From positions 352,001 to 416,000 of the forward strand of contig CM000429.1 in NCBI GenBank assembly GCA_000165345.1: 64,000 nucleotides of DNA, written 5' to 3'. Numbering within the stretch: the stretch's first letter is position 1; the number at the start of each line of letters is the position of its first letter. The position numbers were made by a program, and so were the translations under genes. Positions 1-47,608 of this stretch are shown here, piece after piece. The notes under the pieces were generated by a model that was given only the letters and a program-made list of their open reading frames with translations, did no database searches and was not told the DNA's origin.

Positions 1-954
1 TAGAAAATATAAATCCAGCTTTGGGGAGAGCTTTATAGTTTTATATTTAATGAAATCTAGATTGAATATTTCTTCTGCGGAAGGTCTTTTATGCGGATCC
101 CTTTCAAACATCAGTTTCAATACTGAATTGAGCTCGCTAGAATAAAACTTTGGTAAATCAGGAACCAGACCATCCTTGACATACTTTCTTAGTTCATCAT
201 AGCTTCTAGCGTAAAATGGAGGCCTTCCAGCTAAAATTTCATAGATACAACAACCCAACGACCAAATATCGCTTTTTTCATCATATTCACCTTTTCCAAG
301 TACTTCTGGAGACATATAGTAAGGTGTTCCAACATGAGTGGTTGCTAGTTGGTTTCTTCCAGTTAAATATCTTGCAAGCCCAAAATCTCCCAATTTAACT
401 ATCATAGTCTTTTGCTCAGGTTTATCAAGGTCTTTGTTAATTCTCGAACCCTCCTGTATTTTATTTTTAAGTTCAGGAGATGAAGAGGCTATTATAAAAA
501 TATTTTGGGGCTTAATATCTCTATGTAGTACCCTATTGCTACGAGTATGACAATAATTTAGTGCGTCTAGAAGTTGAATAAATATTGAGATAACAGTTTC
601 CTCGTCAATACTTAATCCTAACTTTTTCTTTTTCTTGAGAATATTTCCGAGGTCTCCTTCATCGCAGTACTCCATTATAATATAGATTTGTTGGTTTTGT
701 TTGTCTATTATACGATCGATGTATTTAATTATATTTCTATGGTTTAATTTTCGAAGTACATTTACTTCATTAACTATTTGTATTTTTTCTTGCTGTGTCA
801 TATTTTCATAACAAATTTTTTTCCAGACAAATAGCCTTCCATCTGACTTCCTCCTAATTTTATGCACTGTACCAAAACACCCCCTTCCTATTTCTTCAAT
901 TTCTTCATAGTCTTCCTGGATGAATTGGTTTTTGTGCATGGCTTGTTTCTGCAT
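1..954 (-). CDS. Serine/threonine protein kinase of the NIMA-related (NEK) family. The 3' end is truncated by the window edge.
   Basis: Manual minus-strand translation from the ATG at 954-952 gives a complete kinase catalytic core: GRGCFGTVHK (Gly loop), HRDIKPQNIF, DFGLAR, and GTPYYMSPE (the NEK-type activation segment), then subdomain XI HKRPSAEEI. The frame is open through to position 1, so the C-terminus lies outside the window. It is absent from the ORF track because it has no stop codon in the window. Confidence 0.8.
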   Translation of the reverse strand, partial: MQKQAMHKNQFIQEDYEEIEEIGRGCFGTVHKIRRKSDGRLFVWKKICYENMTQQEKIQIVNEVNVLRKLNHRNIIKYIDRIIDKQNQQIYIIMEYCDEGDLGNILKKKKKLGLSIDEETVISIFIQLLDALNYCHTRSNRVLHRDIKPQNIFIIASSSPELKNKIQEGSRINKDLDKPEQKTMIVKLGDFGLARYLTGRNQLATTHVGTPYYMSPEVLGKGEYDEKSDIWSLGCCIYEILAGRPPFYARSYDELRKYVKDGLVPDLPKFYSSELNSVLKLMFERDPHKRPSAEEIFNLDFIKYKTIKLSPKLDLYFL

Positions 955-1136
955 CGTTAATGGACGATAATTTATGGGTTTTGCATATCTATATTAACAA
1001 TACAAACTTTGGGTCTTCCAATGTTTGAAGAACGATCAAAAATTCATAAATAAATCCTTTTTCTTTGTCAACTTACCTCCTTTTTTTTAGCATTACGTGT
1101 TATTACGCATTTCATCCCCACAAATTCTCATGTCAA

Positions 1137-1147
1137 TTTGGCGCCAC
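1137..1147. promoter_or_regulatory. E2F-type site TTTGGCGCCAC in the divergent promoter between the NEK kinase and the 1409 gene.
   Basis: Exact match to the E2F consensus TTTSGCGC. It contains the TGGCGCCA core reported as over-represented upstream of Cryptosporidium cell-cycle and DNA-replication genes. It lies about 190 bp upstream of the kinase ATG. Confidence 0.45.
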
Positions 1148-1408
1148 ATCACATGCTTTATCCATCAAATAAAGTCTCAATAGAAAATTAATTTGGTTGA
1201 GAAAAGTCACAAAAATTTTGATGGATCCTGGGTAAAACTCGTCGGAGTGTTCTTTTGCAAGTTTATTAACGATTTAAAAGAAGGAAGCGGCGGTAAGTAC
1301 CGTTGTTCCATTGGCGCTACCGACAAATCAAAGCGATAAGGAAATAACAACAGCAATAAATTGACTTAAAAGTTTGCTTGAACAAAGTAAAATTTGAATT
1401 TAATCACA

Positions 1409-2146
1409 ATGGAGGGCGGCGAAAATAAGAATCATGTTGGAATGAACTGCTCTCTCGATGATCTTATCAGAAAAGAAGCTCCAAAAAGGCCGAATGTTAA
1501 CAAATCAATTAAGAAAAACACGAGCCGAGGAAAACCCGTGATGAAAAATAAAAAAATGGTTCGTTCGGAGAGAACATTTATTAGCAAGCGGAATAATGGT
1601 TCAGCACAGGTTTCTTCTGGTAGAAACAATGCCAGCGGCTTGTATAGAGGTACATATAAAAAAGAAGGTAAATCACAATCTTTGTATATGAGAAGAAAAA
1701 AAGATTTTCAAATGAGAACTGAATTAAATAAAAATGATAATATACCTGACAAATACTGTGAATTATCCAATTTAGATGAACGTGAAAGAATAATAAAAAT
1801 GATACGTCTTGAGCACAAAGATGAAGACTTCACACTCCAAGTTCTACTAGATTCGAACCCAATAATTATTGTGAATAAAATAACAGGAGTAATTAAATTA
1901 AATTCTTTTAATTGCAGAACTTCAAGTATGCTTGATGTCTGGAATCTGCTATTAAAGCCTCTCGGCTTATCTTTACAGGTTGTAAATATGGGCAGTGACT
2001 GTACAAACTGGTCAATCACTGATGGTAGTTGTTATATGGAAAATTTTAAAGATGGTATGATAGTTCGTGGATCAGGCTCTAGAGATACTGCTAGGAATGC
2101 TCGGTTTTCAATCCTTGAACAACATATTAGGCAGTTAATCATTTAG
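1409..2146 (+). CDS. Hypothetical basic protein of 245 aa with an N-terminal SLDDLIRKE motif resembling the UAP56-binding motif of Aly/REF, UIF and CHTOP mRNA-export adaptors.
   Basis: The track ORF 1394..2146 begins at TTG, and the first in-frame ATG is at 1409 (MEGGENK...). The protein is Lys/Arg/Asn-rich. The motif MNCSLDDLIRK can be compared with Aly MSLDDIIKLN. No RRM is present. Confidence 0.55.
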   Translation: MEGGENKNHVGMNCSLDDLIRKEAPKRPNVNKSIKKNTSRGKPVMKNKKMVRSERTFISKRNNGSAQVSSGRNNASGLYRGTYKKEGKSQSLYMRRKKDFQMRTELNKNDNIPDKYCELSNLDERERIIKMIRLEHKDEDFTLQVLLDSNPIIIVNKITGVIKLNSFNCRTSSMLDVWNLLLKPLGLSLQVVNMGSDCTNWSITDGSCYMENFKDGMIVRGSGSRDTARNARFSILEQHIRQLII

Positions 2147-2223
2147 TTAATTCATGCTCAGTTAGATATAAATAAATATATATATATATGTATATATAAG
2201 TATTTGTTTAATTCTCCTTAATA

Positions 2224-3057
2224 TTACTTTCTCCAGAAGCTCCTCTTTTTTGAGCTCAGTTCTTGAATCTTCTTTGCTAAGGCCTTTTGCTTTTGCTGTA
2301 ATGCTGCATGCTTTTGTTCAGCAATTGCTAAATCTGATTGTAAGAATTTAAGCTCTACGTTGTCTGCACCATAAACTCCCTCATTCAAAGAAATCACACT
2401 AGATAACTTTTGAATATTTTCAATAATTTTTGATCTTTGTTGCAATGTTTCTTTAGCAAGAGCTTCGGCTTCAAGTAATTCTTGATTTGCCTCTTGTAAA
2501 GTCTTAGCATGAATTCTTTTCAGTCTATTAATTTCAGACTTAAATATTCTAAATTCTGATTGAGATAAGCTAAGTCTTCCAACGCATGTTATGCATGGGG
2601 TTCCAGCTTGTTCTTCTTGCTTGATTGCAACAGAAGGTGGCTCCAGAAATACAATTGGTGCTTCCATATTTTTGAATGCTGATGATAACGACATTTTTGA
2701 AATAACATCTGATAAGTTGTCAACTATTCCCAAACTATTTTCTGCAAATATGTTCTTTGGATTGCGCCTAAGTTCTGCGAATTCTTTAATTCCAGCCCAA
2801 TTATCTTCAATTTGTGTAATGTTATTCTTAATATGTACTAGACCCTTCATTATCTCCTGAGATTGGACAACTAATTGGTCTTGTAGTTCAAAATCTGGAC
2901 TATAGTCTTTCCTTGGAGTTGTTACTTCTGGGTAGAAAACTTTAAAATATGTACCAACAGCTTTGGCAATAGTATCTAAAAGCCCAGCTTCACACCCATG
3001 TGGCTTTCCTATAGTGTAAATTAATAAGGTTAATACTACAGAAAACGAAAGTTTCAT
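2224..3057 (-). CDS. Secreted coiled-coil protein with a predicted signal peptide, about 277 aa.
   Basis: The track ORF starts at GTG (3162-3160). The first ATG is at 3057 and gives MKLSFSVVLTLLIYTIGKPHG, a hydrophobic signal-like N-terminus. This is followed by a long heptad-like region (LQEANQELLEAEALAKETLQQRSKIIENIQKL...). Confidence 0.55.
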   Translation of the reverse strand: MKLSFSVVLTLLIYTIGKPHGCEAGLLDTIAKAVGTYFKVFYPEVTTPRKDYSPDFELQDQLVVQSQEIMKGLVHIKNNITQIEDNWAGIKEFAELRRNPKNIFAENSLGIVDNLSDVISKMSLSSAFKNMEAPIVFLEPPSVAIKQEEQAGTPCITCVGRLSLSQSEFRIFKSEINRLKRIHAKTLQEANQELLEAEALAKETLQQRSKIIENIQKLSSVISLNEGVYGADNVELKFLQSDLAIAEQKHAALQQKQKALAKKIQELSSKKRSFWRK

Positions 3058-3136
3058 TTTTGAATGTAAAATTCTTTTTCTTATTTTTAATGACTTGCAT
3101 TTAGGCTCACCTATAATGATAAATGCAATTATATTT

Positions 3137-3507
3137 GCATGCAATTGTTTACATGCATGCACATAGTCACCGCCTAAACATTATAAAATTAATAGCAAAT
3201 TTAATAAAAAATAATTAAAGTAAAGGCAGAATATACCATTGATTTTGAGAAACTCTCAATCAAATTTGTGAAAATAATTTACTCGAAAATAAGCCCTGCA
3301 GCTAAAAGAAAATGAAAATCTACTGCAAACATGTAGAGAAACTAAACAAAAGGGATTAAAGCTCAGTTGCATGCGCTCTAAAATAAATATACAAAATTTA
3401 AATAAATTTGTTTATTATCTTTGAAAAAAAATTCTTAAATTTTTTTGCTGTGCATGTGAACCACAAAGAAGAATTGGCGCCCTCATGTGGTCAATGTTTG
3501 CGCATGC
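3137..3507. promoter_or_regulatory. Divergent promoter carrying four exact GCATGC motifs (3137-3142, 3155-3160, 3369-3374, 3502-3507) and a TTGGCGCC box (3474-3481).
   Basis: GCATGC / TGCATGCA is the ApiAP2-type motif over-represented upstream of apicomplexan genes. The region lies between the 3057(-) gene start and the 3626(+) gene start. Confidence 0.4.
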
Positions 3508-3625: not shown

Positions 3626-6600
3626 ATGTTAGTTATTACAGAGAAAATCTATCATATAAAACTACTGGTGATATTTCTCGTAATAATAATCAAAATAGGC
3701 GTGGTAAATACTGAACATGATTTGGTTTGTCCAATTGGATATATTTTAGAAGGAAATCATTGTAAATTGTGCGAATCTGGTACATTTTCAAATAAAGAAA
3801 CAAATAGTTGTACAGCTTGTGGAGAAGGTAAATATTCATTTCCAGGAAGCTATTCTCAATCTTTATGTTTCCAATGCTCAATAGGAACTTACTCAGAAAA
3901 AGAAAAATCAAATAGCTGTGAAATTTGTCCAAATAATCAGATTACATCAACTATTGGTTCAACAAAAAAAGAGGATTGTTTTTGTATGCCTGGCTTTAAG
4001 CCAGCAAGTCTAAGAGATGAAACTTGCGTTCAATGCGCTTCAACTGAGTGGTGTTATAGAGTGTCTCCTAATTCCGGAGGGTTTTGGAATGTAGCATCTT
4101 ATTGCTATAGTGTAGATTTAAGTAAATATTCAAAAGACTCGACAACACATTTACTTTGTAATGATATGTCTTTGATGAGCTCAAAAACGGCAAATTTTCA
4201 AATTCCATGTTTTGGAAGTCAATGTGAAAGCTTATACAGGAATAACGAGGTAATTTCAAATAACAATATTAATTCACTTATGGTAGTTAGATGTAAAGAA
4301 GGCAGTTCTGGTTTCCTTTGCGATGATTGCGAGGATGGTTATGCAAAGATAGATGGGTTATTGGGAGAAGTTGGTTCATGCAAAAAATGCAGTTTATTGA
4401 ACTTCACGCCATTTATTTTAAGTAATTTATTTATTTTTGGTTTAATTATTTACTCTGTTTGGGTCTTGCGTTTGGAACCAACTGCAAATGAAGAAGAAAT
4501 GCCTATTGTTCAAGTTACAATTATTAGAACAACTATCCAACACATGCAGTTTCTGGGTCTGCTGATTACAACTAATGTGGTAAGGTTCGAGTATTTTCCA
4601 AATTTAACAGTTGCAATTTCATATTTAGGATCGAGTAACTCTTTTTTACCACTTTTTCAATGTTTATTGTCAAAGTTTGGTATTGATAGACATGGCCCAG
4701 AAGCTTTGAAGATATATTCAATTGTTATATCAACTATGCCTTTTCTCCTTATTATTTTTGCCATAATTGCTGCCCCAATTCTAAGATATTTTAGGGAGAA
4801 AGAGGTTAGAGGTTTTTTATTAGGACGACAAGAAATGGAAGGAGAATGTCTACAATTTCAGAAGTCATATTTTTCTTGGGTTTTTAGCTTATTTATTGTA
4901 TCCTTTTTCTGTTATTTTTCAATGAGTATCAAAAATATTTATTCAATTATTAGTTGTACATCGCTTAACATTGACATTCAAAACCCCACTAATTCATTAA
5001 TGGGTAGTTACGTAACGCCAGAAAGTATGAATTTATTTCAAAATACAAATAATGAAATTCCTGGATTATTATCGGTTGTTTCAATTGCGAAAGAAAATAT
5101 TTGTTGGAGTCATGGACATTTTGTCGCCATATTTTACTCTCTCATTGGTTTAGTCTTCTGGCATATTTTAATACCTATTGTATACTTGCTTTGCATTTAT
5201 TTTGATACAAAAAATGACAAAATTCAACGTAGGAGACTAGTATATGGGTGGTGGATAAGTGGATATGAAAATACAAATATGAATATTTGGGAGATCACTA
5301 CTTATTTGAGTCAAATAATTTACTTGATAGTGATACTCTTGATTGGAATACTTCATACATTTAATTACGTTGTTGCGTATTATGCAGTTCCGGGTGGCTC
5401 ACATTATGAGACTTTAAATCCGCTTTGTTCTCCAATTTTGTCATCATTTTGTTGTATTGTGTTGACTATTTCCTTGGACAGTATTTATAGCTTTGTGAGG
5501 CCAAATTCTCAAGACTTTTTGCGTACAGGCATTCAAAAAGTTGATATTTCTTCAGTAGGCGTCGAAGATGAACTACTAACAGAAGAACAAAAGCAAAAAC
5601 AGAAAGTTGCTTATGGAGGAGTGAATTCAAAACAAACAAGTAGATTGAATTGGAGTTCGTATTTTTATTTTATTCGTCGAATGTCAAGCTTTTCAATTAT
5701 TACAGTCATTTTTGCATCAATACTGCCAAGACTAAATGTAAACATAGAAAATAAGATTGAAAACCTTAGAGGAACATGGATAGATTCTGTGGATACAAGT
5801 CTTATACCACTGGGATATGGAGATTTTTCTATCCGTTTTTTTTCAATATTTTCAGTTATAGTAAATTATTTTTTTATTTTTATAATACTATTTTCGGTAT
5901 TAGGGATAAAGATATACAAAAGGGTTTTGCCGATGCTATCATCAAAATCAAAAGTAGAAGTAAATATCAAGTCAATGAGTGATTTTGCAAGCAGCTCCGA
6001 TTCAATTAAGCAAGTAAACAAGGGAAATCAAGTCAATGGAAGAATTTCTAATATTGGAAATGCATTTGTATCATATCATGATATGAACAAGACTAGTCAA
6101 ATAGGAGATCAAGATGGAGAAAGAGTTGATGACGAAATTTCAATAGAACAACTTATCAGAATGCACTTAAGAACGGATTGTCTGGGGTTTTTATCGCATG
6201 AAGATCGTGTATCTGTTGTGGTCGCAATAAAAAGATGTGATAATCGACAGGAAGGGTTGGCAATTTCACTTAGAGCAACATTAGATTCTAGATTCGGTGA
6301 AAGTGGTAAATATACGTTAATTGAAAATAATTTATTTGTTTGTGAGTCTCTAAGAAGCTATGGATTTTCAGATTTTGGAATGGAGAAATTGATTGAAGAT
6401 TTAATAGAGATACACATTTCTATCACAAACAGAATTAAAAGTGTTAGTAGGAACTCATTAAAAATGGCATTAGATTTATGTATTATTAATTATCCAGAAG
6501 TTGCACAAAAACTGGGCATGGAAGTGATAGTGCCTCCAGATTTGAATTTAAATAATATGAATGAGAAGTCAAACATTGAAACTAATAATAATACAGAGGC

Positions 6601-9600
6601 GTTATATTCCTTACATCTGAGGAAACTACTTGCAAGGCTAAGTTTAAATGCGCTGATCTTGGACATTAGTGATAACTTCTTTAGAATTCCAAGATCAATC
6701 CCTATTTCATTAAGATTAAAGCTAAATAGAGGAACAGGCCTACTGTTTTCTGAACCTAATTTAGAAAATAATGGAATAGAAAATATGGAATTGAACCACT
6801 CTTTGATTAATGAAGATACTAAGGACAAGAAATACAACGTACCTATTCCTGGGTATATTGAAGAGGAATATAATGAACCAAGATCTTTGGATGTTGACCT
6901 AATGTTATCCATAAAGAAATTAACAGAGTGTGACCCAAGAACTGTCTTGGAAGAAACCAGTCATCCAATAGCATTTGAAAAAGCGACAAGAAACTCGATT
7001 ACAAGTGATAAAGTATTACAGACTTTATTTTCATTAATAGAACCTGAGTTTAAGTCCCAACTTAGAAGTTCATTAGAGCTTAATAAAGAAGAATTAAAAG
7101 AGGGTATTGGAGAATTGGACAGAAATCAGGATGAGGAAATTGTTCAATTGTTGTTAGGACTAAATCCAGACGAAAATATTGGTAGCGAAACAATTCTAAC
7201 ATTACTTAATGATTTAGAAACCATTGGTAATAGTACTTCTGATTATATGGATAATAAATCTCATTTATCTGATTCAGAATTTCATTCCCCAGATGAACAT
7301 AAAGTTAGTTCAGTTTCCAAAAAAATAGGATTTTCTTTAAAAAATTTAAAGAATAAAAATAATACAAAAGGTGATATAGTTAATGAAGATAGTAATGCTG
7401 TTCAATCAAAGAACAAAATGTCTTTAAAGCTAAAAAATTCAATATATAATTTATTTCTACTTAGAGTATTGGATCTAAAGTCATGGTTAAGTCAGTATAG
7501 AAAGCAATATATTGAAGAAACTAATAAGAGAATGGAAAGTTTAAGACAGTACAATTATTTGAATTTTGATAATAATTTTACTATACCACAAGGAAATAAT
7601 ACTAGGAATACTTCAAATACTAGTTCAAGCATTGCAGATAATAATAATAGTAATACCAATGGAGTTAATGAAAATAATAATGGCACTATCAATAATAACT
7701 CAATTATTAAATCAAGTGAATTAGACGTAACAGCTGCTGCTTCTTATTCATCAAAAATAAGTATTGAAGCAAAAGAGAATTTAAAAATGATGACAGATTT
7801 GGTATCAAATTTAAATAGATACGCAAGTCCAAGCATGCTTTTTTATTATTTACAATTATGTAAAAGATTAAGTTTAGGTGCAGATTTTACAATGACTTCA
7901 TTAATACCAGATAATTTGTTGTATAAAGGCGTAATTAGCAATGAAGAGGCATTAAGATTATATAGAGAAATTAATCCTAGTTTGAATTTTAATGATAATC
8001 CTCTTGGCTTTGATGTCGCAACTATTCACGAATTTTCAGCATTGAATACACCTAATTTGAATTTAAAAAGAGAGTTGGAATTGACAATAGAATCACAAAG
8101 AGAGTTTAATATGATTTTTCCATCAGCATTGCCATGTATACATTCAATATTTTGGGTTCCTTTTGATATTTATGATGATGACAATTTATGGATAATTCAA
8201 AGTAGAGAAAGACAGAATATTTCTCAGTTACTAGATTGTTTATCAAAGGATCATCCACAAATAATAGAATTACCATATATTGATGAAGAAGCTATGGATG
8301 AAAAAATGGAATGCGTAGAATTTGATAAAAATGACCAAGGCCTAACTAAACAAACATTGTATACATTATTACCACAAATTTCAAATAATGGAGGAATTGA
8401 AGATGGTTCTTGGCTTTGGAGTGAATTACCGATCAGATTTGCAATTGATTTAAATGGTTTAACAATTAGAAAGATGCATTCATCCTCAAATTATCCAAAA
8501 AGCATTTATTTATCTGGAAACCCATTATCAGTTTTAGGTCCTCAATCACCTCAATGGGCATTTATGAGCCATAAATCAGATAGAATTAATTATTTAAATG
8601 GAGTTTGCACTTTGAATTATAATATTATTAATAACAATAATAATAATAATAATATAGATTTTGATTCAAGCACAATATTTGGTGATCAAGCAATAATTGT
8701 TGCCCCAGGTATAGAAGTTAAAGGAACATCATTTACAATTGAAGTTTGGGTGAAATTGCCCCCGTTGTTTGATAAATTGGAAGAAATTAAAGAAGAAAAA
8801 GAATCGGATTCAGAAGTAAAAAATCAAAAAAGTAAATCAAAGTCTAAATCAAGAGCTAAAAGCAGAACAAAAATGGAGGGAAGAATTAGTTCAAGAGCAA
8901 AAAGTAAAAAGAAAAAAGTAGATATGCTATCTTCAAATAAAGATAAAAATCAATCATTATTAAGTCTAAGTAAATTACAAAAGAAACTTGTTGAAATAAA
9001 AGGAGGGAAAGAAGAAGATGATGAAAATGAACAAGCAAGTCTTGATGGAACAAATTCAGAAATCAGTGGAATTCAAAAAGAATCAGATGATTTAAATAAT
9101 GTTAATATGAAGAAAAAATTAGAATTACCAACATTACAAGTCCTATGTAGTACTGATGCAATGGAAGGATTATTTACAGTACATAGACCAACAGGAACAA
9201 TAGGATTTTGGGATAGTAATGGAAGATTTTTAAAATGCGTAATTAAGAATGATCAAAAAGAAATAAATAAGAATGAAATGCAATTTAAAAATTCTTCTTA
9301 TGTTGCATCTAATATTGCAACATTGCAAAATATTTATTCACAATTAGGATTGATAAAAAGAAGTACCTATTGCAAAGAAACTAATCAAGATATTGAACAA
9401 TTTATTAATTACATTGAAGATCCATTAATTCTTGATCCATGGGTTTTAGTACATATTGTTTATAATATGGGATCAATAAAATATTATGTAAATGGTAGGT
9501 TTATTGGTTCAATTAGAAAACCAAATGGTTTAAAAGGTGATATATCAGTAATTGGAGGAGGATTAGAAAGTGGATCAGGATGGGGTTATTTTAGTCAATT

Positions 9601-12600
9601 TAGAGTTTATGGAGTGCATACAAGTAATGAACAAATAAAAAGACGTTATGAATCATATATTTCACTCAATTCAGATAATTCATTTATTACTAAAATTAAT
9701 AAATTAACATCATCAACAATTAATTGGGCATTAACATTATGGAGAAGTGGTGCTGTAGGATTTTTCATATGGAAATATAGTCAAATAAATTTAAAACAAA
9801 ATGATGTTACGTATTTAATAGAATTAATTAATAGAAAAAGAAATGTTTTATGTAATGGAGATATTGTTGATGAGTCAGATAACGATAATAGCAATTTAAA
9901 AAATGGAATATTACTATTTGGTGTAATTATTAGAATATTAAAAGGAGAAAGATCTTTTCCATATTATTATGTATATGAACCATTACCCTATTTAGAAAGT
10001 ATTCAAGATGAGAACAGTGAAAAAAATGAATCAAATAATAAAATACAATTATCACCCATGAAATATAAAATGACTTCAATAACATCACAATTAGGGTATA
10101 GAATAACCGAAGATTATAAGAAAATTAAATTAGATAATGAAAAAGTATATAGAATGAACCCATTATTTTATCAGCCAAGTATAGTACCTGGCCCAGGAAT
10201 GTCAGAGTGTTTATTATTAGCATTTAACACAAAAAGTAATAATTCTGGATTATTGATAACACCACCAATTGAGTTGCAGAAAAAAATTATAAATAAAAAT
10301 AGAAATGCAAAGAATTCTATGAATAAAGATGATCAGAAAAAAAAAGGTAATGGTTTATTGAATGGTAATTTTGATGAAAAAAATGATGAAATATCAGAAA
10401 TTTCAGAATGTTATAATGGTTGGACAATAACTGTATGGTTTCATTATCCATTACTAACAAATTATTCATATACAATAAATAATTCTTCGAATCAAAATGA
10501 TGAGGATATGGTTACGAATAATTCCAAGAAAAAATCTAACTCAGATATTGATCATTATATAGTATTAGTAACGGGTAAAAATGATTCACATATAATAATA
10601 AATGAAAATATGGATGTTGGAGTATACAAAAACTTTTCACAGATCAGCAATAATAATATTAATATTAATAATAATAATAATAGTAATAATAGTAGTAATA
10701 ATAATAATAATTATAATTATTATAATAATTATAATAATAATAATAATAGTAATAATAATAATAATAATAATTACAATAATTACAATAATAATTATTATAA
10801 TAATAATTATTATAATAATTATAATAATAATATTAATATTAATAATAACAATTATATTAATAATAATACAAGCAATTATATTGAAAAGGGCTTTTATTCA
10901 TCTGGGTTTAATTTAAATAAATCAGAATTGCCTATCGGTTGGCATATGTTAACGGTTGTCGGTAAACCAAGAATGGAATATACAAAAACGGAAGATGAGA
11001 AAGAAAGGAGTATAGTTGGAGGAGGAGGATTAGGTTTCACGGAAATTACTAAGCCTATGCAGAAAAATATTAATTTATCAACACAATATAAGTGGTGCCA
11101 AGAATTTTATATTGACGGACAAATTATGGGTATTAGCTCATATTGTACCCATGAAAGTATTGTTATGATTGGAAATAGTTTATTTTTAGAAAATGCATTT
11201 GGAATATTTACATGTCCAAGAATTTTTAGTCACTCATTCTCACCGATGGAAATACATACTGATTTTTTGTCTTACAATTATTTAATAAAAGCAGGAAGTT
11301 GGAATTCAAAAGATGATATTTTATTACAATTTGATTATAACTCTATTACAAAGGAATTTCGTGTATTAGAAAATCCAAGCAACAAATTAAGATATATTTA
11401 TAATTTTGGTTCATCCCAATACTCGAATAAATATGATCAATTAAAAAATGTAACAAAAGACAGACGAAAAAAGAAAAAAAAACAATTATTAGAGGGAAAC
11501 TTGGAAATTGATGACCAATCTTATTGGTTAGATGAGATGGAATGCCAATCACCTTTGTTTAATTATATTGAAACATTTTTGAATAATAACTCATTTGATA
11601 ATGAAGCTAAATATATAATGGCAATAAGTAATAGCATGATTAATCAATCTGAAAGTGAAAGTAATAATAATAATGATAGTGCTAGCAATAATGTTAAAAC
11701 AAATAAGATTAATGATATTCTTGAAAATTTTTCAAATATTAACAAAAATAATAAAGAAGAAGTATGCCAAATAAATGTAAAAAATAATGGCATTATTACT
11801 ATTCATAGAGGGCCAACCAATGAAAATATATGTATTGACCCAACTCAAATTTTTATTCTAGAAAAAAAATCGGGATATTCGACAGAAGGTGGGAGTGTAA
11901 TATTAGAAAGGCCAGTAAGATTAAGTAAGAATTGGTCATGTGAAGTTTGGTTTTATGTTCCTTTTGAGATAACATTTCATCCTTATTGTTTGATATCAAA
12001 TAGTGACGGTATAGGATTTATTGTAATAGGTTTAAATGGTGAATTGGGATCAATACAAAGAAAAATAACAAATATGTATGAAAATAATGGTGTGATTTCT
12101 AAGAAAAATAATAAATATGATTCAAAAGGATATGAAAAGAATAATAATCGATTACAATTTTTATCTTGGGATGTAAATTTGAGAGATCATGTTGATGTTG
12201 GTTGGTACCATATGGTTGTTACATTTAATACAACGCAAAATAACACAATAACAACTTATATTAATTCTCAATGTATTGGAAAGAAGATGAATGCGTTTGA
12301 ATTACCACATCATCAAAGTCCATGGATTGACTGTATTGGTAATTTAAAATCATTCAAAGGAAATTACATTGCACCATTTGGACTATTTGGGCATTTAAAA
12401 ATATATGATTTTGCATTGTCTACGATAGAGGTCGGATTATTGTACAAAAGTTGGATGTGCCATAAAAATTTAAAGAAAGAAATATTAAATCGTCACATTA
12501 AACAAGAAAAATCTGCAATAACTAAGAACTACACTTTGTACAAAAATTTAATGAACAAAAATAATAATTTCAAGGAAGAGGAACGATCTGAAAACAAGGA

Positions 12601-23100: not shown

Positions 23101-25893
23101 TCAACGTTTCGAGTCCAAATTGGAGGCTCCTGAAACGACCATAACACTATAGCTAATGTTGGAATCATTATTTAGAACATTATTTGTTAAACTGCTAGCC
23201 GCTGTTGCTGCATAGCTTGCATTACTGCCGTTCTTACCATTACCCGATTGCTGTTTTAATCCCTTTGACTGAATACTCGACGATACACTAGACCCGCCGC
23301 TTGTGGAAGATGTAAATGTAGAAGTCGAAGTTGCTGTCAAATTCCCCGATGGAATCGTAACATTATTCACAGTGGGCAACTGCGCTGCGGACTGGTATTG
23401 GGATTGAGACTGAGCTTGAGACTGAGATTGGGATTGCCCTTGGTTTTGATTAGCAACCTCAGAATTCCCATTTGAAAGAGTAGGATGGCGTAGTTTGCCA
23501 TCTCTTGTCCTTAATTCAGCTTCACCATGAGCAAACTTACAATCTGCCTCTAACCAGCAATAGCCACGCATCCAGTGCCTGCAGAGTGCTCTTTTGTAAT
23601 TGTAAGGTTCTCCATGAGCACCAAGAGCAGTTGATGAATCTTCGTCTGTATTAACCGACAATAAATTATTAGAGCTATCATTACTAATGTTCGACATATC
23701 GCTATTAACTGATGCCTGATTTTCAGATCTCCCAGTGCTTGATGAAGTTGTAGTCACACCTCCGCTATTGCTATCATTTTTATGTAGAACTGCGTCAATA
23801 TAGGACACATTTCCTGTTGAAATATTCAAATTTCCCACAACCCCGGGTTTTCCAGAGTTAATTGTATTTTGCTTCGAGTTATTTGCAGAAAGAGCACTAC
23901 CTATATTTAAATTATTTCTGATTGAACCTTCATTTCTCACCCCCATCATGGAGATCAATTTAGGGTTTGAACCAGTTGAGGGGTTATTATTATTAATGTT
24001 CTGGTTTGAGCCTGAAGTGGAAATGCTGGATAGTTTTGGACTATTTGACGAATTCAAGCATTCATTTTGTTGGGAGTTCCCCGTATTTAGCCCATTATTA
24101 TTATTGATGCTAGATGTAACACTAGATATCTTCGTTGAGTCTTTGGATGATGGTATCTGCTTAATTAATGCACTTGTTAATGGAGGAAACGCAGAACTAT
24201 TAAATAACTGTGTATTGGTATTGGTGTCATTAATTGAGCTATTAATATTATTTGAACCGCTGTCCTCATTAATAGCAATCAAGTGGTTATCCATATTAGA
24301 GCCAATTTGCAAGTCTCTATTCTCTAACTTGTTTTCAGTGAGGTTAGAGCCATTAATATATGCCTCATTGACACCACTTTCCACTGAAATTCCGTCTCCT
24401 TCCCCTGTGCATGCATTATTATCTGAATTATCCAAGGGCTTCATATTTTGGTGGCTGCTTAAGGTAGCCCCACCATTATTGCTTCTATTATTTCTCTCGT
24501 TGATATTTACATTGTTGATATGCTCACTGATTAACATATTGTTTTTGTTTTGTGAGTCGCAAATAACTTGGTTTTGCGAATTAATATCAAATCCTAATCC
24601 AAGACAAAACCTTTGAAAATCAACATCGACGGATGTAGTAGATGGTATAATGCCGTTGTGATTATTTGCCTGGTTAAATGAATTCATACTATTGCATGCC
24701 ATTGGATTTTGAACGGTCCAAGTATATATAGAATTATTTTGGTAAATATCTGATGCATTATTTGAAATACTTATTAAGTTTGGTGCCGTAGTATTAAAAG
24801 AGCTAACATTAATGCCTGGTTGATATAAGTTGTCTTTATTTCCTTCATTAATCAAGTCGCATACCTTTTTATCAGTTTCTATAATAGAATTTCTCGTCTC
24901 ACTCAAATTGTTCATTGCGCCGTTGACAATCTTAGAATTTTGTCCATTATTCAGTATGCCATTAGCTCCGTTGTTACACTGTTTCATATGATTTATATTG
25001 GTATTTGTATCAGAAATACCTTCCGTATTGGAGCAATTCATATTTGGATTTAAGTTGTTGCTATTAATATTGTTATCATAAGAGTTAAAATCATGCAAAA
25101 ACCCATTAGATGGAGAATAACCACCACTTGTAGACATCCAAGGATCTGATATAAACGAGCCATTAGTGGAACTTCCCGTAGTATTATGGTTTACTGTGTT
25201 GTTCTGCAATGCTACAGAATTGTGCGAATGGTTCCAAAATCCATCATTAAGCACTCCGCCAAATGGCGATGGCTGAGAATTTGGAATATTTACATTAGGA
25301 GTGCCAACACCTACATTAATCGAGTTCATTCCGCAAACGACACCAGGAATGGAATTCCCCCTCATATATATAAAGCTATCTTGATTAAATCCCTCTCCGG
25401 CACTGGTACTATTACTTTTATAATAAGGAGATGTAGCGCATGTACTAGAGCTACTTGATTGAAATCCTGGATTACAAATGGCAGTAAGGTTTTGTGGTAG
25501 CCAACAAGAAAGATCAAGTGGTAATCCGCCTCCAACTGAAGATAGACAGTTAGTATTGGAGCTAGATCCATTTGGTATAGCAGTAGCTGACACAATCGCC
25601 GCTGGATTCACAGAGTTTATTACACCATTCATAGATATACCAGGATTATTTATAGATATTGACAATTTCTGTCCCTTGTTATTACCTTTAAAAAAACAAA
25701 ATGGGCAGCTTCCGTTATTCTTGTTAATTAATTCATCCTTATAGCAATCTTCACAAACAACTTGCTGGCAACACTGAAGAACTACTCCCGGAATATTATT
25801 CGATATGCCAATTTGTCTTAAACATAATGAACAATCATTTTCTATCTCTGTCAAAGACCATAAAAAAGTGTCATTCGCTGAATCTGTATCCAT
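23101..25893 (-). CDS. RING-finger plus CCCH zinc-finger protein with very long Asn/Ser-rich low-complexity regions (930 aa).
   Basis: N-terminal C3HC4-like cluster CSLCLRQIG...CCQQVVCEDCYKDEL...CPFC (nt ~25683-25836). Near the C-terminus, YKRALCRHWMRGYCWLEADCKFAHG is a C-x8-C-x5-C-x3-H finger (nt ~23520-23600). There is a QSQSQSQAQSQSQ repeat. Confidence 0.7.
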   Translation of the reverse strand: MDTDSANDTFLWSLTEIENDCSLCLRQIGISNNIPGVVLQCCQQVVCEDCYKDELINKNNGSCPFCFFKGNNKGQKLSISINNPGISMNGVINSVNPAAIVSATAIPNGSSSNTNCLSSVGGGLPLDLSCWLPQNLTAICNPGFQSSSSSTCATSPYYKSNSTSAGEGFNQDSFIYMRGNSIPGVVCGMNSINVGVGTPNVNIPNSQPSPFGGVLNDGFWNHSHNSVALQNNTVNHNTTGSSTNGSFISDPWMSTSGGYSPSNGFLHDFNSYDNNINSNNLNPNMNCSNTEGISDTNTNINHMKQCNNGANGILNNGQNSKIVNGAMNNLSETRNSIIETDKKVCDLINEGNKDNLYQPGINVSSFNTTAPNLISISNNASDIYQNNSIYTWTVQNPMACNSMNSFNQANNHNGIIPSTTSVDVDFQRFCLGLGFDINSQNQVICDSQNKNNMLISEHINNVNINERNNRSNNGGATLSSHQNMKPLDNSDNNACTGEGDGISVESGVNEAYINGSNLTENKLENRDLQIGSNMDNHLIAINEDSGSNNINSSINDTNTNTQLFNSSAFPPLTSALIKQIPSSKDSTKISSVTSSINNNNGLNTGNSQQNECLNSSNSPKLSSISTSGSNQNINNNNPSTGSNPKLISMMGVRNEGSIRNNLNIGSALSANNSKQNTINSGKPGVVGNLNISTGNVSYIDAVLHKNDSNSGGVTTTSSSTGRSENQASVNSDMSNISNDSSNNLLSVNTDEDSSTALGAHGEPYNYKRALCRHWMRGYCWLEADCKFAHGEAELRTRDGKLRHPTLSNGNSEVANQNQGQSQSQSQAQSQSQYQSAAQLPTVNNVTIPSGNLTATSTSTFTSSTSGGSSVSSSIQSKGLKQQSGNGKNGSNASYAATAASSLTNNVLNNDSNISYSVMVVSGASNLDSKR

Positions 25894-32330: not shown

Positions 32331-35300
32331 ATGCTTCAAAGTAGTGGAAAATTAAGAAAGAGCATTCGCATAGAACCTAGTATTTATCAGGCATGGGTGC
32401 CTCCGATTTTTTCAGAGCCCAATCGCGAAGACGAAATAAAGATTTCATTTAAAAAGGTAAGTAAAATCTAATATATAAATATCCTACTGTGAATTTGTAC
32501 ATTTTCATTTACTTGTTCTAACTCCTTTTATTTATTTTCTTCAGTGCGAACGTTTATATGATCCGAACCTTGTTGAGAATGAACAAACTGATAAAAAAAC
32601 CGATGAAACCCTCAAAAATTTAAGATTTTTACTTAGGAGCATGGAAACTGATTTTAACTACCTCTCGGGAGAAAAAATATTGGAATATATGTCTAAAAAT
32701 GTGTCGGAATCGCAACGCTTTCCTTCCTATGCAGAAAAATTAATACTAACACGAGATGAGGATCTAAACGTAACTAGTATTTCTCCTATAAAATATAAAA
32801 CTGACTTGAATAGGATTAAATTATTCAAGGATGAGGTTTGCTGGTCCATCAATAAATCTCAAGACTCCATGACAACTCAAAATAAGAATTTATTAGACGA
32901 AACAAAAATATCTGGTAAGGCTATTAACGATAAATCATACGTGGATTCTAGCCCCATCTCCTATGGAAAACTTTGGGAAAAAACGATAAATCAACATATT
33001 TTTATTAGCATCATAGACAATTGGAAGAAAAGTGTTGGTTTTATATTTAATGATAGCTACAAGAACCTAAAATATACTTTGAACGAGGGAATTGAGCTGC
33101 TACAAGAGGGGATAGCACTAAATAATAAAATTAGACTTCCAGAATTGGAAACTCTCGTAAATGCTGTTGAAGAATCGCTAGCATTCGAAGAAAAAATCAA
33201 AAAATTACTCTCTATAGACGACCCAACAGTAAATTTAGGAGCTCTCAAGTCTCCTTGTAAGATCCCAATTACAGAGTTATGTGAACTATTGAAAGAAGGA
33301 GAAAGCTGTTCGTTTAGGTCAAACTATTTGGATTTCTTGAAATGCCAATTAGAAAAGTTGAAGTCATGGAGGAGCAATGTACAATCTGCAATAATTGAGA
33401 AAAATTTGGATAAGTGCAAAGACTTAATAAAAGATAAAGACGAGATACTTATAGAAGTTCCAGGAATAAATGACCTTACCGAGCAAATAGCAGCAAGCAA
33501 CTGGATTGAAAAGGTTGAAAGAAGCCTTAGCCGTCCAATGAAATTTAATTTTGCAGAAAATTTATTAAATGAGCCCGCATCAAAATTTTTGGATGAAAAA
33601 AATGTGGCAGCTAAACAACAATTAATTAATAGAGTCCAAAAGGCTCAAGAATGGCTCAATGTTGTTCAATCTCCACCTTTTATATATAGCTTAGTTTCTG
33701 CCTGCAAAACTACAGCTCCAAATGACATATCTGAAGTAACACAAAAAATTATTGATCAAGCAAAGATAGAAATGGAAGAATCTAAAAATTGGAAGCTCCC
33801 AAGACCTACTGAATATGAAAAAGTTTGGCTTGAAAGTTCCACACTCAAAATTATTATTCCTTTGATGAAATATATGGAGCCTGTATATTTACGTTGGAGA
33901 AAATGGAACAAGAAATATAAAAGACTTATGGATGGACTGTGCATTTATATGGAAGCACAACTTATTTTAGAGGAAGCAGAATATACATTATGCGACTATC
34001 TAGATATGAGTGAATACCTTCCAGAATTACGCAAAAAAATTAAAGAGAGTGGTGATTGGCTAAATACTAGCAAGGAGTTTCTCAACACGATCTCAGACTT
34101 TCACACAAAACAAGATATTAACAATGTATCTTCAAGTATTTGGAATACTGTTGCCGGTATAAAAAAAGGAAGTGAGTTTTCAAGGCTTGAAATTCAACAA
34201 GCTTTAGACTTCATGAACTCCCAGTTTCATGAACGCTTAAGTTATGAAAAACTGAAGCAATTAATAGAAATTGGAAACGAGCTTACTATATATGAAATGA
34301 CAATCTTGCAAGAACTTACGTCCTGTCAAGATAGCTGTGAAAAATGGCTCAAAAAGGGAAAAGAATATTTAAAATGCTCTAAGATATCTGGAATTAACAT
34401 TGCAATGGTAATAAGCCTGTTATTAGAGCGTAGCTGCATTCTTGTTTCAAAAGAAACAGAAGATTCTCTTTTTGCTGAATTGCATTTCATCATTTGGAAA
34501 ATGGACATTAATGAGATCCAAGCTCCTATTAATGACTACGAATTAAGTTCGCTTATTGAAAGATTTAATGAAGTGAAGTTATATTTTGACTTTGATCATT
34601 CTAACTTGGCAAAAACACAAAATGAAAATCAAACCCAACCTAATAAATTGATCGCTCTATCCTTACCTAATATAAAAAAAGAAAATGAAGAATCAGACCC
34701 TCAAAATAATGAAGAGTTATTAGCTCATCACTCAAGCGTATGCGAAAATAATACTACACAATCTGAAGCAAGCTATGATCCAAAAAGTCCTGAAATTAGC
34801 ATTGAAGAAATAGATATTCAACAAATAAATATTTCACACTGGAACCAGATTAAAGAACTAGAAGCTGCCGCATTTATTACAAAACTACAAAATATCTTAA
34901 TTTATTGGACCAACTTAATTCATGAGTATGAGACTGAAAAGAAAGAAGTTGAAGTTTGGCGTAGTATTTTGGAAGACCTCAAGCATCTTCCAATTTCATT
35001 TAATAAACTTGAATTAAAAATCAACAAAATAATAAGTGATTATGATCGAATTATTTCGATTCTAAAATGCGGAGATGAAGAGTCTAATCATTTGCCAGAT
35101 TTAAAACACCCGTTTTCACTTTTATATTCTTATAAGAGACTTAATGAACTAAATATTGAGGTTTCCAACCTACCAGTGAAAATTTCTGAATGGGACAAAT
35201 GGCAAAAACACTTGGATGAACTAAACCAATGTGATGATTATACCCTCTCAATGTTCTCTTATTTGAAAGAGACAGAAATTATAGTTTCAAATTGTGAAAG

Positions 35301-38300
35301 CACAAGTATTGAACAAATTGAGAGGAAAAAGGTGATGGATTACTTAAATAATATAAACGAAAGACTTGTTTCAAATTCTGTTTGGGGTATTACTGACTTC
35401 AAAAGAATTTTAATAGATTTGAAGTTTACAGGTAAACTGATTCAGGACTTATCTATTTGTGAGTGTTGGATAAAAAGTGTAAAGGGAGATTCCTCAAATG
35501 ATCCAATGGGAATCGAACATTGGAATAGCTTGCTTCAAAGAGGAAGAACAATTAGAATAATTGACCACGAAATTTTCAATAAATTCGAAGCTCAAGTTAA
35601 GCAGTCAATAGAATGGAATGAAATATACTTCACAGCTCTGCATTCGGATGCATTTTGCAAAGTTATAAAGTATAAAAGGAATAGTAAACCATCTAATAAG
35701 ATAATTTACGAAATTGCAGAACTTTTGGTTAGAGTAGATTATGGAATAGGCGAAAGACTCGTTACTTTTAGAGAGCTAAGACAGAGCGTAAATTCTTTTG
35801 TAGAACTACGTAACCAGGGAATTAAATATTTGAATATATGTATTAATGAAAGAAGAGATAAAGTTTTTTCTAGGTTATTAAATAAATATTTGAATCAATC
35901 CCAAGTTTCTACTCAACAAAACTCAGAAGTTATAGACCAAATAAATTCAATTAAGCAATTTACATCTGATTTAAAGAACCTCCTGGAAAGCTGTAATCAA
36001 CACACAATTTCTATGGATTTAATAAGTTATATACAAGATGAGATTCTATTGCGTGAAATCAATCAGAAAATGTTCAACGCACTAATTAATCAAGAAAATC
36101 CTTATTTCACAACAAATTTATATGGTTATTCTGCTGCTTCAAATGATTCAAAGATCCCCACATTCGATGAAGCAAATGATATTGTTAACTTTATTAGAAT
36201 TAATGATTTAAATATTATGCCAGAAAACTATTCAAACATAAATGAGACCAATGGCTCTCAAACTCAGCTTTCATTTGAAATTCATGAAAAAAGTCAGCTC
36301 ACAATCAAAGAGCTTAAAGAAATAGTTTTGAATTCTGAATCTGTTTTAATGAAGGGCCTTGATTCAACTGGAATGTTAATTGAAAAGAAATACATTGATG
36401 TTGATCTGTTCAAAAAATTTAGGAAAGCTGTATATATTTCTAGTGAATGGTTGAAAGTTTTCAAGATTAATCATTTTAACATAATTGATAACATAAAAGC
36501 TGAAAGTTTTTATAATAGAGAAGTTCCAAAAAACTTGTTATCACTTAACGTTAAATCTTCAATAGATTATTTGTTAAAAGAATATCTTAAGAGCCAAGTA
36601 AGTGAGCTCGTGATTAATTCAGTACCAGAAAAAGAATGTGCTATCAATCAAGTCAAATTTGAGTTAAATTGGAATCAAATCCTTGAAAGATTTAATGAGT
36701 TGGAGATGAATGATTTAATCCAATTTAAAGGGAAAAATAATGATATTATTAAGAGATTGTTACATACTTTTGAAGTGGCTGATGAACGCTTAGATGATTA
36801 TTCAACAAAGCTTGATGAGAATATTCTATGCAAAAATGAACAATCTTCCGAGGAAGTATTTTTTGATGACTATTCAAAATATAGTGCCCCTTTATTTTTA
36901 AACCTTTTGCATTATTTAAGGAATAATAAGAGTGCTTTATCGAATTTTGCCGATGAAAAATCTTACTATGAAAGCCTACTCAACTCTATTAAATCACATA
37001 TAAATCTTAAATATTGTATCCACTTATCCGATGAAGAAAGATTAAATATTCAACAATTCGAAGAAAGTTTAGGTGTCAGCAGTAATTATAGATTAAGCGA
37101 TACAGAATTACAGAAAAATGAAACCATACAGGATCCAAATATATCAACTCAAAATATAAAATACAAAAGAAATAAGAGATCTAAATCGCTAATTAATGGA
37201 GAAAGGGTTAATGAAGAAAACATTGATAGTATTATCAATATATTAAGGAATATTGAAATGCCAAGTATCGAATTATCTCTTTTCCTAATCAATTTTGGAA
37301 AAAAGTTTGTTAAATTTGAATTAAAAGAATTCTCAAATTTATGTAAAATGGTTGAATTTTCTTTGCTTTGGATGGCCTTAGTTATTACTAAATTCCCAAA
37401 TTTTATAAAAGCGAGCCTGGGAGATGATATCAGTGAAATAAGTGGCATTGAAGCAATAAAAAAACAAAATAGTCAATTAGTTTTTGAAGATTGGGAGAAA
37501 AATGTTTGTTTTGATTTTTTCAGTACAAACAATATTTGTCTCGGTACTATTAATACTGGCGAAATAGCAAACTCTCAATGTAAGCGTCTTCAAAATACTT
37601 TGGAACTCAAAGAATTCGTCTCTTTAATTGAGACATGCGATCAATTACCAATTCAAATACCAATTAAATCGAGGCTTGTAAATATTCTTGTGGATGCATT
37701 AAAATGGACAATCTCCGCTAGAGAAGCAATATTACTATTACCTAGAAATACAATATTATGTCCATGGGTACATATTGAAGGAATAGTGGAAGAAATTACT
37801 CTACGCTCAAAGAATAGTCAAATAATGAAAACTATTGGCCTTGATAAGAATATTTATAATATCAAAGATGAAGAAATTATGAATATCATATCAAACTTCA
37901 ACGCTAATGAATATGAAACTTGTTCTAATTTTGAAAAGAATGGTGAAGTAGACATTCAAGTTAAAAAACTTCCAAGGCCTAGAGGAAGACCTAAAAGAGA
38001 ACAGGTTTGTGTGACAAAAAACGAATCACAATTTGAAGATATATTTAATAATATATGCATGGATTACAAAGAAATAGATCGCTTGCCTAATTGCGTTTTT
38101 CCAAAGTCATTTTATTTGTGGTTGTTAAATGAAAACAACAATAAATATTTTAGTGTTCAAGATTTGATGTCTATTACATCCAAGGATGAAGATAATAAAA
38201 ATTCCAAATTAAATAATTCCCAAAACTGTAATTCAAACATTGGATGGGAGAACGGTTACTTTTATTGGAATAAAAGCGGTAGTTCAGCTTCAAAAGAATC

Positions 38301-47500: not shown

Positions 47501-47608
47501 TTTTGGCTTTAAAACAGAGTAGCCTGATTTCCAAATAGAGCTTGAGCAGCTAAGCGAAATTTCATTGTTGATACTGATAATTATAATAAATAAAAGCAAG
47601 CATAGCAT
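44525..47608 (-). CDS. Secreted insulinase-like M16 metallopeptidase (inverzincin) of 1027 aa.
   Basis: N-terminal hydrophobic signal MLCLLLFIIIISINNEISLSC. The inverted zinc motif HLIEH (HxxEH) lies at nt ~47339-47353 in the context GLFHLIEHVLFLGTKKYPAPESYDEFMAQHGGKNNAYTSEERTIYF. Its length fits a four-domain M16 architecture. Confidence 0.8.
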   Translation of the reverse strand: MLCLLLFIIIISINNEISLSCSSSIWKSGYSVLKPKTDDRSYKNITLENGITALLIEDKFSEKAGFTVGIKVGSFNNPVYALGLFHLIEHVLFLGTKKYPAPESYDEFMAQHGGKNNAYTSEERTIYFNEIGEEYLEEGLDRFSHFFIDPLFYENVIEKEIHIINSEHLKNIPNEFDRLFHMLKTHTNKPMSQFTTGNIETLVDIPNKLGISIPRLLKKMYKKYYCGINMFIVLSSKRSLTDQEKLLQKYFSGVLIDNDGQCEFSSLKKEHGILNKSIIDQKYLSKKIHVKSLGGRDLLWLIWSFPARLISPVKQPLIYLSYILNSKQKNSLFWFLQKNNYITNSNSVYENYTFGSIFIYQLELTSEGLKNQFEIIGLIYKYINKLKESKELLKVYQGIRSLTEREFITNTEMLESSPMHSTSEICSKMIQYGVHAALSGDILIEDVDENLIYEILNAISPFDTLFLVSDEQEFSGTYEKFFHVKHAIEDIPIKTLNAWKKTKFNEREENEIKLPTPEKCSPINLRIIQEVEDLSTPQRLDSMLANIWWNGPVKKSHKIGIKILLKFPRRYNKGIETQVWGEIITYILDTLIKEKIERYSECGMSFYIEWDVEGILISIDTFGYSDDIDILLNEIVASEIANISNFDCSILNEIIAELNNSKYAFNSEDTTYSKIMLIIKSLQTNGEYTEWEYRNFINRMFVEIENQNPSKNRHKFISFILEYTQTILGSSSNKGYNKCELFNSWAYKLLHRQSIIAYLQGNISKNKSLYLIEKFVLNSKILSLNDKYSMKKKIHKLTRPIDIALINPVFEDINNTVLAFYQFGVPSFEEKLHLMALQPIIQGYIYDNLRTNKQLGYIIFANIVPISSTRLLVVGVEGDNNNSVEKIESIIRNTLYEFSTRKLGNMESHMFEDIKSALIQEAKSIGNSFNQKLNHYWDEIRYVGDLSESFNLQRAIDYINNKMTIEHLYNTFSKLINSKERTRSHSTIKAIYYSKTSPEFKKQEFIDKYMNSALSIARMSLKEDDFY

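Follow-up and report, generated by a model that had tools for sequence, protein, structure and literature searches.

What kind of protein is encoded by a 9-kb open reading frame (ORF) on Cryptosporidium parvum chromosome 1, and which way does the bulk of it face? The ORF lies on the forward strand at positions 3626 to 12652 of a 64,000-nucleotide stretch of that chromosome (contig CM000429.1, positions 352,001 to 416,000; hereafter the window, to which all nucleotide positions refer). An original prediction, made from the letters alone, had described it as a giant multi-pass membrane protein that combines ephrin-receptor-like Cys-rich modules, about ten transmembrane (TM) helices and three lectin-like LamG/ConA domains, and had proposed that it might be a new member or a divergent relative of the apicomplexan cysteine-repeat modular proteins (CRMPs). 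In this work, we identify the protein as CPATCC_000266, which profile comparison places in the CRMP family as a strongly divergent member, and we describe a very long tail that carries the LamG/ConA-like domains and that quite probably lies inside the parasite.

The window is AT-rich, with a GC content of 24-37% across 2-kb intervals. The ORF is uninterrupted over 3,008 codons, as predicted, and its product is identical at 3008 of 3008 residues to EAK88440.1 / QOY43476.1 (CPATCC_000266). Each of the five other frames contains 139-435 stops over the same interval, and the probability of meeting no stop at this base composition (28% GC) is about 1e-127. Collinear full-length orthologues of 2,829-3,003 amino acids (aa) are present in C. 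canis, C. felis, C. bovis, C. ryanae, C. serpentis and C. muris, with 49-76% identity to the C. parvum protein in the full-length alignment, and C. hominis sequences fall into the same 90%-identity cluster. The gene order is common to C. parvum and C. muris (a kinase, two small genes, CPATCC_000266, PSMD12/PCI, WD40 and DUF2009).

The gene and its assignment to the CRMPs are already public; the added value here is the architecture of the tail and its likely orientation. Since the genome project, the product has carried a GenBank name that marks it as a membrane protein and mentions a signal peptide, an EGF domain and, in truncated form, '9x ...'; the database name also includes 'extracellular membrane associated'. 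Singer et al. 2023 (PMC9815656) include the same sequence, as XP_627992.1, in their CRMP phylogeny dataset and list two putative Cryptosporidium CRMPs, this protein and CPATCC_001478. The protein is therefore not a new member of the family, having been both annotated and classified before.

The membrane core and the CRMP family

In canonical CRMPs, the ectodomain is large and built of several modules (Kringle, MAR, C-type lectin, EGF), the TM block is near the C-terminus, and the conserved core consists of EGF-like/Cys-rich modules followed by transmembrane domains (PMC9815656). Checked against the same paper, the statements of the original prediction that the TM block of CRMPs is near the C-terminus and that LamG repeats are not a described feature proved right. 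CRMP core sequences were taken from S3 Table of that paper, and the query core comprised aa 81-830 of the seven Cryptosporidium species. In profile-profile alignment with hhalign, the query matched five CRMPA-clade cores with 98.5% probability (E = 1.9e-15, 420 columns) and nine CRMP cores with 99.4% probability (E = 5.6e-21). The aligned span, aa 81-569, includes the Cys repeats, the EGF-like module, TM1-TM5 and the following loop, and runs into TM6. From this match, together with the loss of homology beyond it, we infer that CPATCC_000266 is a genuine CRMP, though one that has diverged strongly, which bears out the predicted relationship.

The N-terminal part of the protein is small. A hydrophobic segment at aa 9-26 fits the predicted signal or anchor, and the ectodomain that follows, of about 230 aa, contains Ephrin_rec_like and EGF-like modules only. 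All 23 of its cysteines (aa 35-255) are invariant among the seven species. For the three predicted CxxC...G.[YF] modules, the cysteine pairs are C46/49, C62/65 and C81/84, with C98/101...C118xC120 after them, and this region matches Ephrin_rec_like (PF07699) with E = 2.7e-11 and 43.5 bits against a cut-off of 23.1, in two stretches of which the best is aa 75-118. Ephrin_rec_like matches are found in 7 of 7 orthologues.

Directly N-terminal of the first helix, there is a module with the pattern CxxGxxGxxCxxCxxGY...CxxC, which hhalign pairs with the TgCRMPA segment CSETMTEYLCSECRRGYTN...CTSCP. The module had been predicted as laminin-EGF-like; it exists at aa 223-255, and it corresponds to the EGF-like module of CRMPs, whereas Laminin_EGF (PF00053) has no Pfam match at E<=5. 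The same holds for TNFR_c6. The only other Pfam matches are below threshold, namely DUF7630 at 20.4 bits on the EGF-like module (cut-off 27) and NCD3G at 16 bits (cut-off 38.9).

After the leader, the hydropathy profile contains eight strongly hydrophobic segments, a weaker and amphipathic one (TM2), and no hydrophobic segment beyond aa 770. As a control, published 9-TM CRMP cores were scored by the same method. The control proteins, which include TgCRMPA and PbCRMP1/2, have five segments before the conserved loop motif and about four (three to five) after it, and TM2 and TM4 are their weakest segments; CPATCC_000266 has five before and four after. Because published 9-TM CRMPs give the same hydropathy pattern, we count nine helices and not the predicted ten or so. 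The loop itself, RRRLVYGWWISGYENTNMNIWE, matches the CRMP motif YGFLHNGF...WYWE in hhalign; this loop, of the pattern YG(F/W)xxGYxxxxxWE, and the first six helices are homologous to CRMP cores.

When the TM-block profile was run exhaustively with HMMER against 1.84 billion representative proteins, only nine weak matches lay outside Cryptosporidium (E = 2e-5 to 4e-4). All of them cover the same 80-100-residue stretch around the loop motif, and they belong to protist-like proteins with Cys-rich/EGF-like N-termini. The TM-core profile gave nothing meaningful against PDB sequences.

The core of the second Cryptosporidium protein, CPATCC_001478 / XP_625616.1, also aligns with the CRMP cores (98.9%, E = 2.3e-17, hhalign). 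It aligns with CPATCC_000266 over the Cys-rich region only (128 columns, E = 2.2e-8), and the two proteins are less alike than each is to canonical CRMPs. Both cores align better to the CRMPA profile than to the B profile, but the latter consists of three insert-rich sequences, so no clade is assigned on this basis.

A further observation concerns the C-terminal ends of the cores. In 13 CRMP cores, from Toxoplasma, Besnoitia, Cardiosporidium, Plasmodium and Chromera, the sequence ends in a shared motif, ERxYF...PGDxLEFxxRxxF, which is absent from both Cryptosporidium CRMPs. Note that this motif is our own reading of the published cores and not a published criterion. It may mark a cytoplasmic interaction site that has been replaced in Cryptosporidium.

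The C-terminal tail and its orientation

After the last helix, the protein continues for 2,238 residues, in line with the predicted length of about 2200 aa. Among the seven species, no other part of the protein is as well conserved as the structured blocks of this tail: in 50-aa windows, 50-68% of their columns are invariant, compared with 18-42% in the ectodomain and TM block. Two of the conserved blocks, A and B (Table 1), had no match in Pfam or PDB sequences in profile searches, and the profiles of the whole tail, of D3 and of D2 (domains described below) gave nothing meaningful against PDB sequences.

The original prediction had placed three jelly-roll domains of LamG/ConA type in the tail. 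Two of them, D1 and D3, match Pfam Laminin_G_3 (PF13385), for which the curated cut-off is 27.6 bits. Both fall just short of it in C. parvum, D1 with 26.9 bits and D3 with 26.2 bits (the latter over profile positions 38-150 of 151). In orthologues, D1 reaches 28.1, 31.1 and 25.2 bits, and D3 reaches 24.3, 35.7 and 29.0 bits. At the level of the whole protein, 6 of the 7 orthologues match Laminin_G_3, with a best E of 1.2e-15. These matches, near the Pfam cut-off and above it in some orthologues, support D1 and D3 as two LamG domains.

The third domain, D2, has no Pfam match, whether or not its inserts are removed. By eye, it contains collinear motif blocks like those of D1 and D3, and a hidden Markov model (HMM) built from the D1 and D3 cores detects 7 of 7 D2 cores at 11.5-18.7 bits, the lowest of these scores being reached by 1 of 2,100 shuffled sequences. 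This support is weak, however, because the motif blocks were picked by eye. The hhalign comparison of D1 and D2 places equivalent C-terminal strands against each other with E = 0.025, but no internal repeat among D1, D2, D3 and the other tail blocks is significant in pairwise hhalign comparisons (best E 0.025-0.084). On this evidence, D2 is probably a third LamG-like domain.

Both D1 and D2 are interrupted by low-complexity sequence. The predicted 75-aa poly-Asn tract is a low-complexity insertion within a loop of D2, and a K/S-rich insert is likewise located within D1. The tract is indeed Asn-rich, over 76 residues, but it is mixed (52 N and 12 Y) and is encoded by a 73-copy (AAT)n array. C. 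muris lacks the tract, and C. bovis and C. felis have a shorter version of it. A second (AAT)n array of 13 copies is present inside the coding sequence (CDS) at 8615-8654, and the C. hominis entries in the cluster mentioned above range in protein length from 2,350 to 2,989 aa. The long array could serve as a polymorphic marker, because its length differs among species and the C. hominis proteins differ in length.

The predicted orientation of the tail follows from the number of helices: with nine helices and an extracellular N-terminus, the C-terminus is inside. The distribution of charge agrees with this model. In the 15-residue flanks of the helices, there are 22 K+R inside and 10 outside in the N-out, 9-TM arrangement, and when TM2 is omitted the balance is reversed, to 7 inside and 23 outside. 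TM2 aligns with TM2 of the CRMPA cores in hhalign, and the tail begins, immediately after TM9, with a basic, K/R-rich stretch (YKRVLPMLSSKSKVE). Cysteine content is 1.2% in the tail and 10% in the ectodomain. In addition, the C-termini of the Toxoplasma CRMPs are cytoplasmic as judged by degron accessibility (PMC9670195). From helix count, K/R distribution, Cys density and CRMP topology, we consider it quite probable that the LamG/ConA-like domains lie on the cytoplasmic side, within the parasite, and do not serve as lectins that bind the host. The picture implicit in the original prediction, of lectin domains available for host sensing, is thus probably wrong.

Table 1. Features of CPATCC_000266, with residue numbers and window positions
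Feature	Residues (aa)	Position (nucleotides)	Strand	Basis or remark
Complete CDS, 3,008 aa + stop	1-3008	3626..12652	+	uninterrupted ORF = CPATCC_000266 / EAK88440.1
N-terminal hydrophobic leader (signal peptide or anchor)	1-29	3626..3712	+	Kyte-Doolittle peak 2.4 at aa 20; GenBank name 'signal peptide'
Cys-rich ectodomain	30-256	3713..4393	+	23 invariant Cys, 10% Cys
Ephrin_rec_like / GCC2_GCC3 CxxC repeats	~46-120	3761..3985	+	Pfam PF07699
EGF-like module before TM1, C223..C232xxC235..C252xxC255	223-255	4292..4390	+	equivalent of CRMP 'conserved core' EGF-like module
Nine-helix transmembrane block	257-770	4394..5935	+	hydropathy
TM1; TM2; TM3; TM4; TM5	262-282; 296-318; 364-386; 416-438; 501-524			hydropathy
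TM6; TM7; TM8; TM9	559-580; 601-622; 686-702; 739-763			hydropathy
Cytoplasmic loop motif RRRLVYGWWISGYENTNMNIWE	535-556	5228..5293	+	counterpart of CRMP motif YGFLxNGYxxxxWYWE
C-terminal tail, 74% of protein	771-3008	5936..12649	+	predicted cytoplasmic
Conserved tail block A	830-1125	6113..7000	+	conservation profile; probably helical (low-confidence model)
Conserved tail block B	1385-1560	7778..8305	+	50-60% of columns invariant
LamG/ConA-like domain 1 (D1)	~1592-2015	8399..9670	+	Laminin_G_3 match on C-terminal half
K/S-rich low-complexity insert in D1	1717-1833	8774-9124	+	
Possible divergent LamG-like domain 2 (D2), with poly-Asn insert	~2255-2552	10388..11281	+	HMM of D1 + D3
(AAT)n array encoding Asn/Tyr-rich tract	2341-2416	10649..10868	+	Tandem Repeats Finder: 73 copies, 81% matches
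LamG/ConA-like domain 3 (D3)	~2715-2950	11768..12475	+	Laminin_G_3 match

Role and rival explanations

Taken as a whole, the data are best explained, in our moderately confident view, by a divergent CRMP with an outward N-terminus and a cytoplasmic tail that acts as a contact-dependent trigger of rhoptry discharge. Architecture and homology alone are shown; localisation, partner and function are inferred by analogy with Toxoplasma CRMPA/B. By this analogy, CPATCC_000266 would be carried by the secretory pathway to the zoite's apical plasma membrane, might pair there with CPATCC_001478, and, upon host contact, would license the discharge of the single rhoptry.

Several points tell against this explanation. 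The role in rhoptry discharge is purely by analogy, and we found no expression, localisation, knockout, genetic or functional data on CPATCC_000266 in the literature. In hhalign, aa 570-1000 do not align with the C-terminal third of the CRMP cores, leaving TM7-9 unmatched, and an HMM of the 13 CRMP C-termini finds nothing in the seven Cryptosporidium proteins (best 0.9 bits). The topology depends on TM2, an amphipathic helix of low hydrophobicity: its hydropathy is below 1.2 in C. parvum, 1.21-1.47 in the orthologues and 1.57-1.95 in known CRMPs. The TM1-TM2 loop is acidic. AlphaFold2 gave no usable structure: the model of aa 1-1200 (7-sequence alignment) has a predicted local distance difference test (pLDDT) score of 38, and that of the whole tail with its LamG domains (1,199 aa, from an alignment headed by C. 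muris) has a pLDDT of 25. The latter has strands where D1 and D3 would call for them, but it is too poor to be trusted, and neither the helix bundle nor the jelly-rolls are seen structurally. Finally, extracellular LamG domains are far commoner than cytoplasmic ones.

The alternative that survives best, which we consider unlikely but by no means negligible, is that the protein belongs to a broad alveolate family of GCC2/GCC3 multi-pass proteins and serves another purpose, such as environmental sensing or a stage-specific function, with no equivalence to the rhoptry-discharge proteins. The extent of the homology is in its favour, since TM1-6 and the loop motif are conserved while TM7-9 and the CRMP C-terminal motif are not, and the TM-core profile reaches, at E about 1e-5, protist-like proteins that have the same motif and Cys-rich/EGF-like N-termini. 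It is also consistent with the greater resemblance of each Cryptosporidium protein to canonical CRMPs than to the other, and with the description of the Cryptosporidium proteins as "far more variable" and of many diverse CRMPs in Chromera and Paramecium (PMC9815656). However, the same paper finds just two such genes in Cryptosporidium, the CRMP complex has been described as conserved throughout the genomes of Apicomplexa, and strong purifying selection over the whole protein fits an essential role.

It is less probable still, in our judgement, that the number of passes is even (8 or 10) and the tail extracellular, with LamG/ConA-like domains that act as adhesins or lectins for host ligands. 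The usual extracellular location of LamG domains, the weak hydrophobicity of TM2 in C. parvum, the acidic rather than basic TM1-TM2 loop and the database name 'extracellular membrane associated' would all be accounted for in this way. On the other hand, an eight-pass arrangement without TM2 violates the positive-inside rule by the charge counts given above and disregards the alignment of TM2 with its CRMPA counterpart, and there is no hydrophobic segment past aa 770. The '9x' of the GenBank annotators, in a name that is truncated at this point, the basic sequence right after TM9, the cytoplasmic C-termini of the Toxoplasma proteins (PMC9670195), and the composition of the tail, which is poor in Cys relative to the ectodomain and carries long basic K/S-rich and poly-N inserts, are further evidence against an extracellular tail.

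The last alternative, that the ORF is an artefact in which a membrane-protein gene and the gene after it have been joined near nucleotide 6000, which the original prediction had named as one of the outcomes that would overturn it, draws on the poor conservation and low complexity of the linker after TM9 (aa ~770-815) and is so improbable that we treat it as ruled out, because the frame stays open across this linker in 7 of 7 species, at identities as low as 41-49% and despite indels (the segment aa 1-830 varies from 817 to 860 aa), C. muris has a single gene of 2,829 aa amid the same gene order, and a stop-free frame of this length has the negligible chance given above.

The favoured explanation extends to the proportions of the protein. 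In the Cryptosporidium lineage, the sensing ectodomain would have been reduced and the cytoplasmic side expanded into a large scaffold, and the ConA-like domains of the tail would find their partners in the cytosol, such as parts of the rhoptry secretion apparatus, and would not recognise host glycans. We put forward only tentatively the complete form of this proposal, in which CPATCC_000266 is a remodelled CRMP-type exocytosis trigger composed of a minimal Cys-rich sensor, a conserved half of the membrane core and a genus-specific 2,200-residue cytoplasmic scaffold, with three ConA-like beta-sandwich domains, that would link host contact straight to the rhoptry secretion apparatus. If true, this would be a rare instance in which a parasite invasion receptor uses LamG-fold domains as its intracellular output module.

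In Toxoplasma, CRMPs are indispensable for triggering rhoptry discharge. Cryptosporidium possesses just one rhoptry and a pared-down set of invasion tools, and targets for drugs or vaccines are scarce. Should CPATCC_000266 prove to be the functional CRMP, the search for the surface that senses the host would be narrowed to a very small ectodomain, the highly conserved cytoplasmic tail could be used in pull-downs or proximity labelling to find the targets of CRMP signalling, and caution would be required before its 'lectin' domains are taken as host-binding modules. Alternatively, if the tail is extracellular, it constitutes a large, conserved, surface-exposed antigen. No prior description was found in the literature of the genus-conserved 2,200-residue tail with its Laminin_G_3 domains and probable cytoplasmic orientation. 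The finding is readily testable in the C. parvum genetic system.

The remainder of the window contains several other genes. Upstream of CPATCC_000266, there are two small ORFs without a Pfam match, at 1394-2146 (+; 250 aa) and 2224-3162 (-; 312 aa). In both C. parvum and C. muris, the gene calls at matching positions are 245-250 and 277 aa long, and the two ORFs are for this reason likely to be real genus-specific genes. The downstream neighbour, at 12748-14427 (-), encodes a PCI-domain protein of the PSMD12/CSN4 type (a proteasome lid or COP9 subunit; E = 6.5e-47), and is followed by a WD40 beta-propeller protein at 14900-16933 (-), in the same order as in C. muris. Further along, a CCCH zinc-finger protein of 930 aa (23101-25893, -) and an insulinase-like M16 peptidase of 1,027 aa (44525-47608, -) are housekeeping in appearance. 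A second giant ORF of 2,876 aa, at 32641-41271 (+), contains a PLU-1-like domain (E = 5e-13) and a PHD finger, and is probably a JARID/KDM5-like chromatin protein. Lastly, an ORF of 1,808 aa at 54233-59659 (+) has a C-terminal SpoU-type RNA methyltransferase (E = 1e-25) as its sole recognisable domain, preceded by an N-terminal extension of about 1,650 residues without any recognisable domain.

Comparison with known systems

A precedent for a Laminin_G_3-type beta-sandwich (ConA-like) at the cytoplasmic face of membrane-trafficking machinery is provided by the BEACH-family proteins (neurobeachin, LRBA and LYST). The likeness may serve as a lead, and CPATCC_000266 differs from these proteins in having no BEACH, PH or WD40 domains.

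Resemblance is also found in the GCC2_GCC3 multi-pass proteins of Paramecium, Chromera, Dictyostelium (Q86I19) and metagenomic sources. Like CPATCC_000266, they have a Cys-rich/EGF-like N-terminus followed by a polytopic block with the motif CW..H...W..P...YGF..GY...WE. However, the similarity is very low (E about 1e-5, over 80-100 residues only), and a LamG-containing tail such as that of CPATCC_000266 is not known in any of them.

Within Cryptosporidium, CPATCC_001478 is of the same family and, by analogy with the CRMPA/B pair, would be the likely heterodimer partner of CPATCC_000266.

The principal comparison is with Toxoplasma gondii CRMPA (TGGT1_261080) and CRMPB (TGGT1_292020) and with Plasmodium CRMP1-4. 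CPATCC_000266 shares with these proteins a signal sequence, Ephrin-receptor-like Cys repeats, an EGF-like module before TM1, nine hydrophobic helices and a YGFxxNGY...WE loop after TM5. Unlike them, it has an ectodomain of only about 230 aa, without Kringle, MAR or C-type lectin modules, and its TM7-9 and C-terminal motif are unrecognisable. Moreover, about 2,240 residues follow its last helix, and these contain Laminin_G_3, which is outside the domain list of PMC9815656 (Fig 1B). The distribution of mass is therefore inverted with respect to canonical CRMPs, with a short ectodomain and a huge tail.

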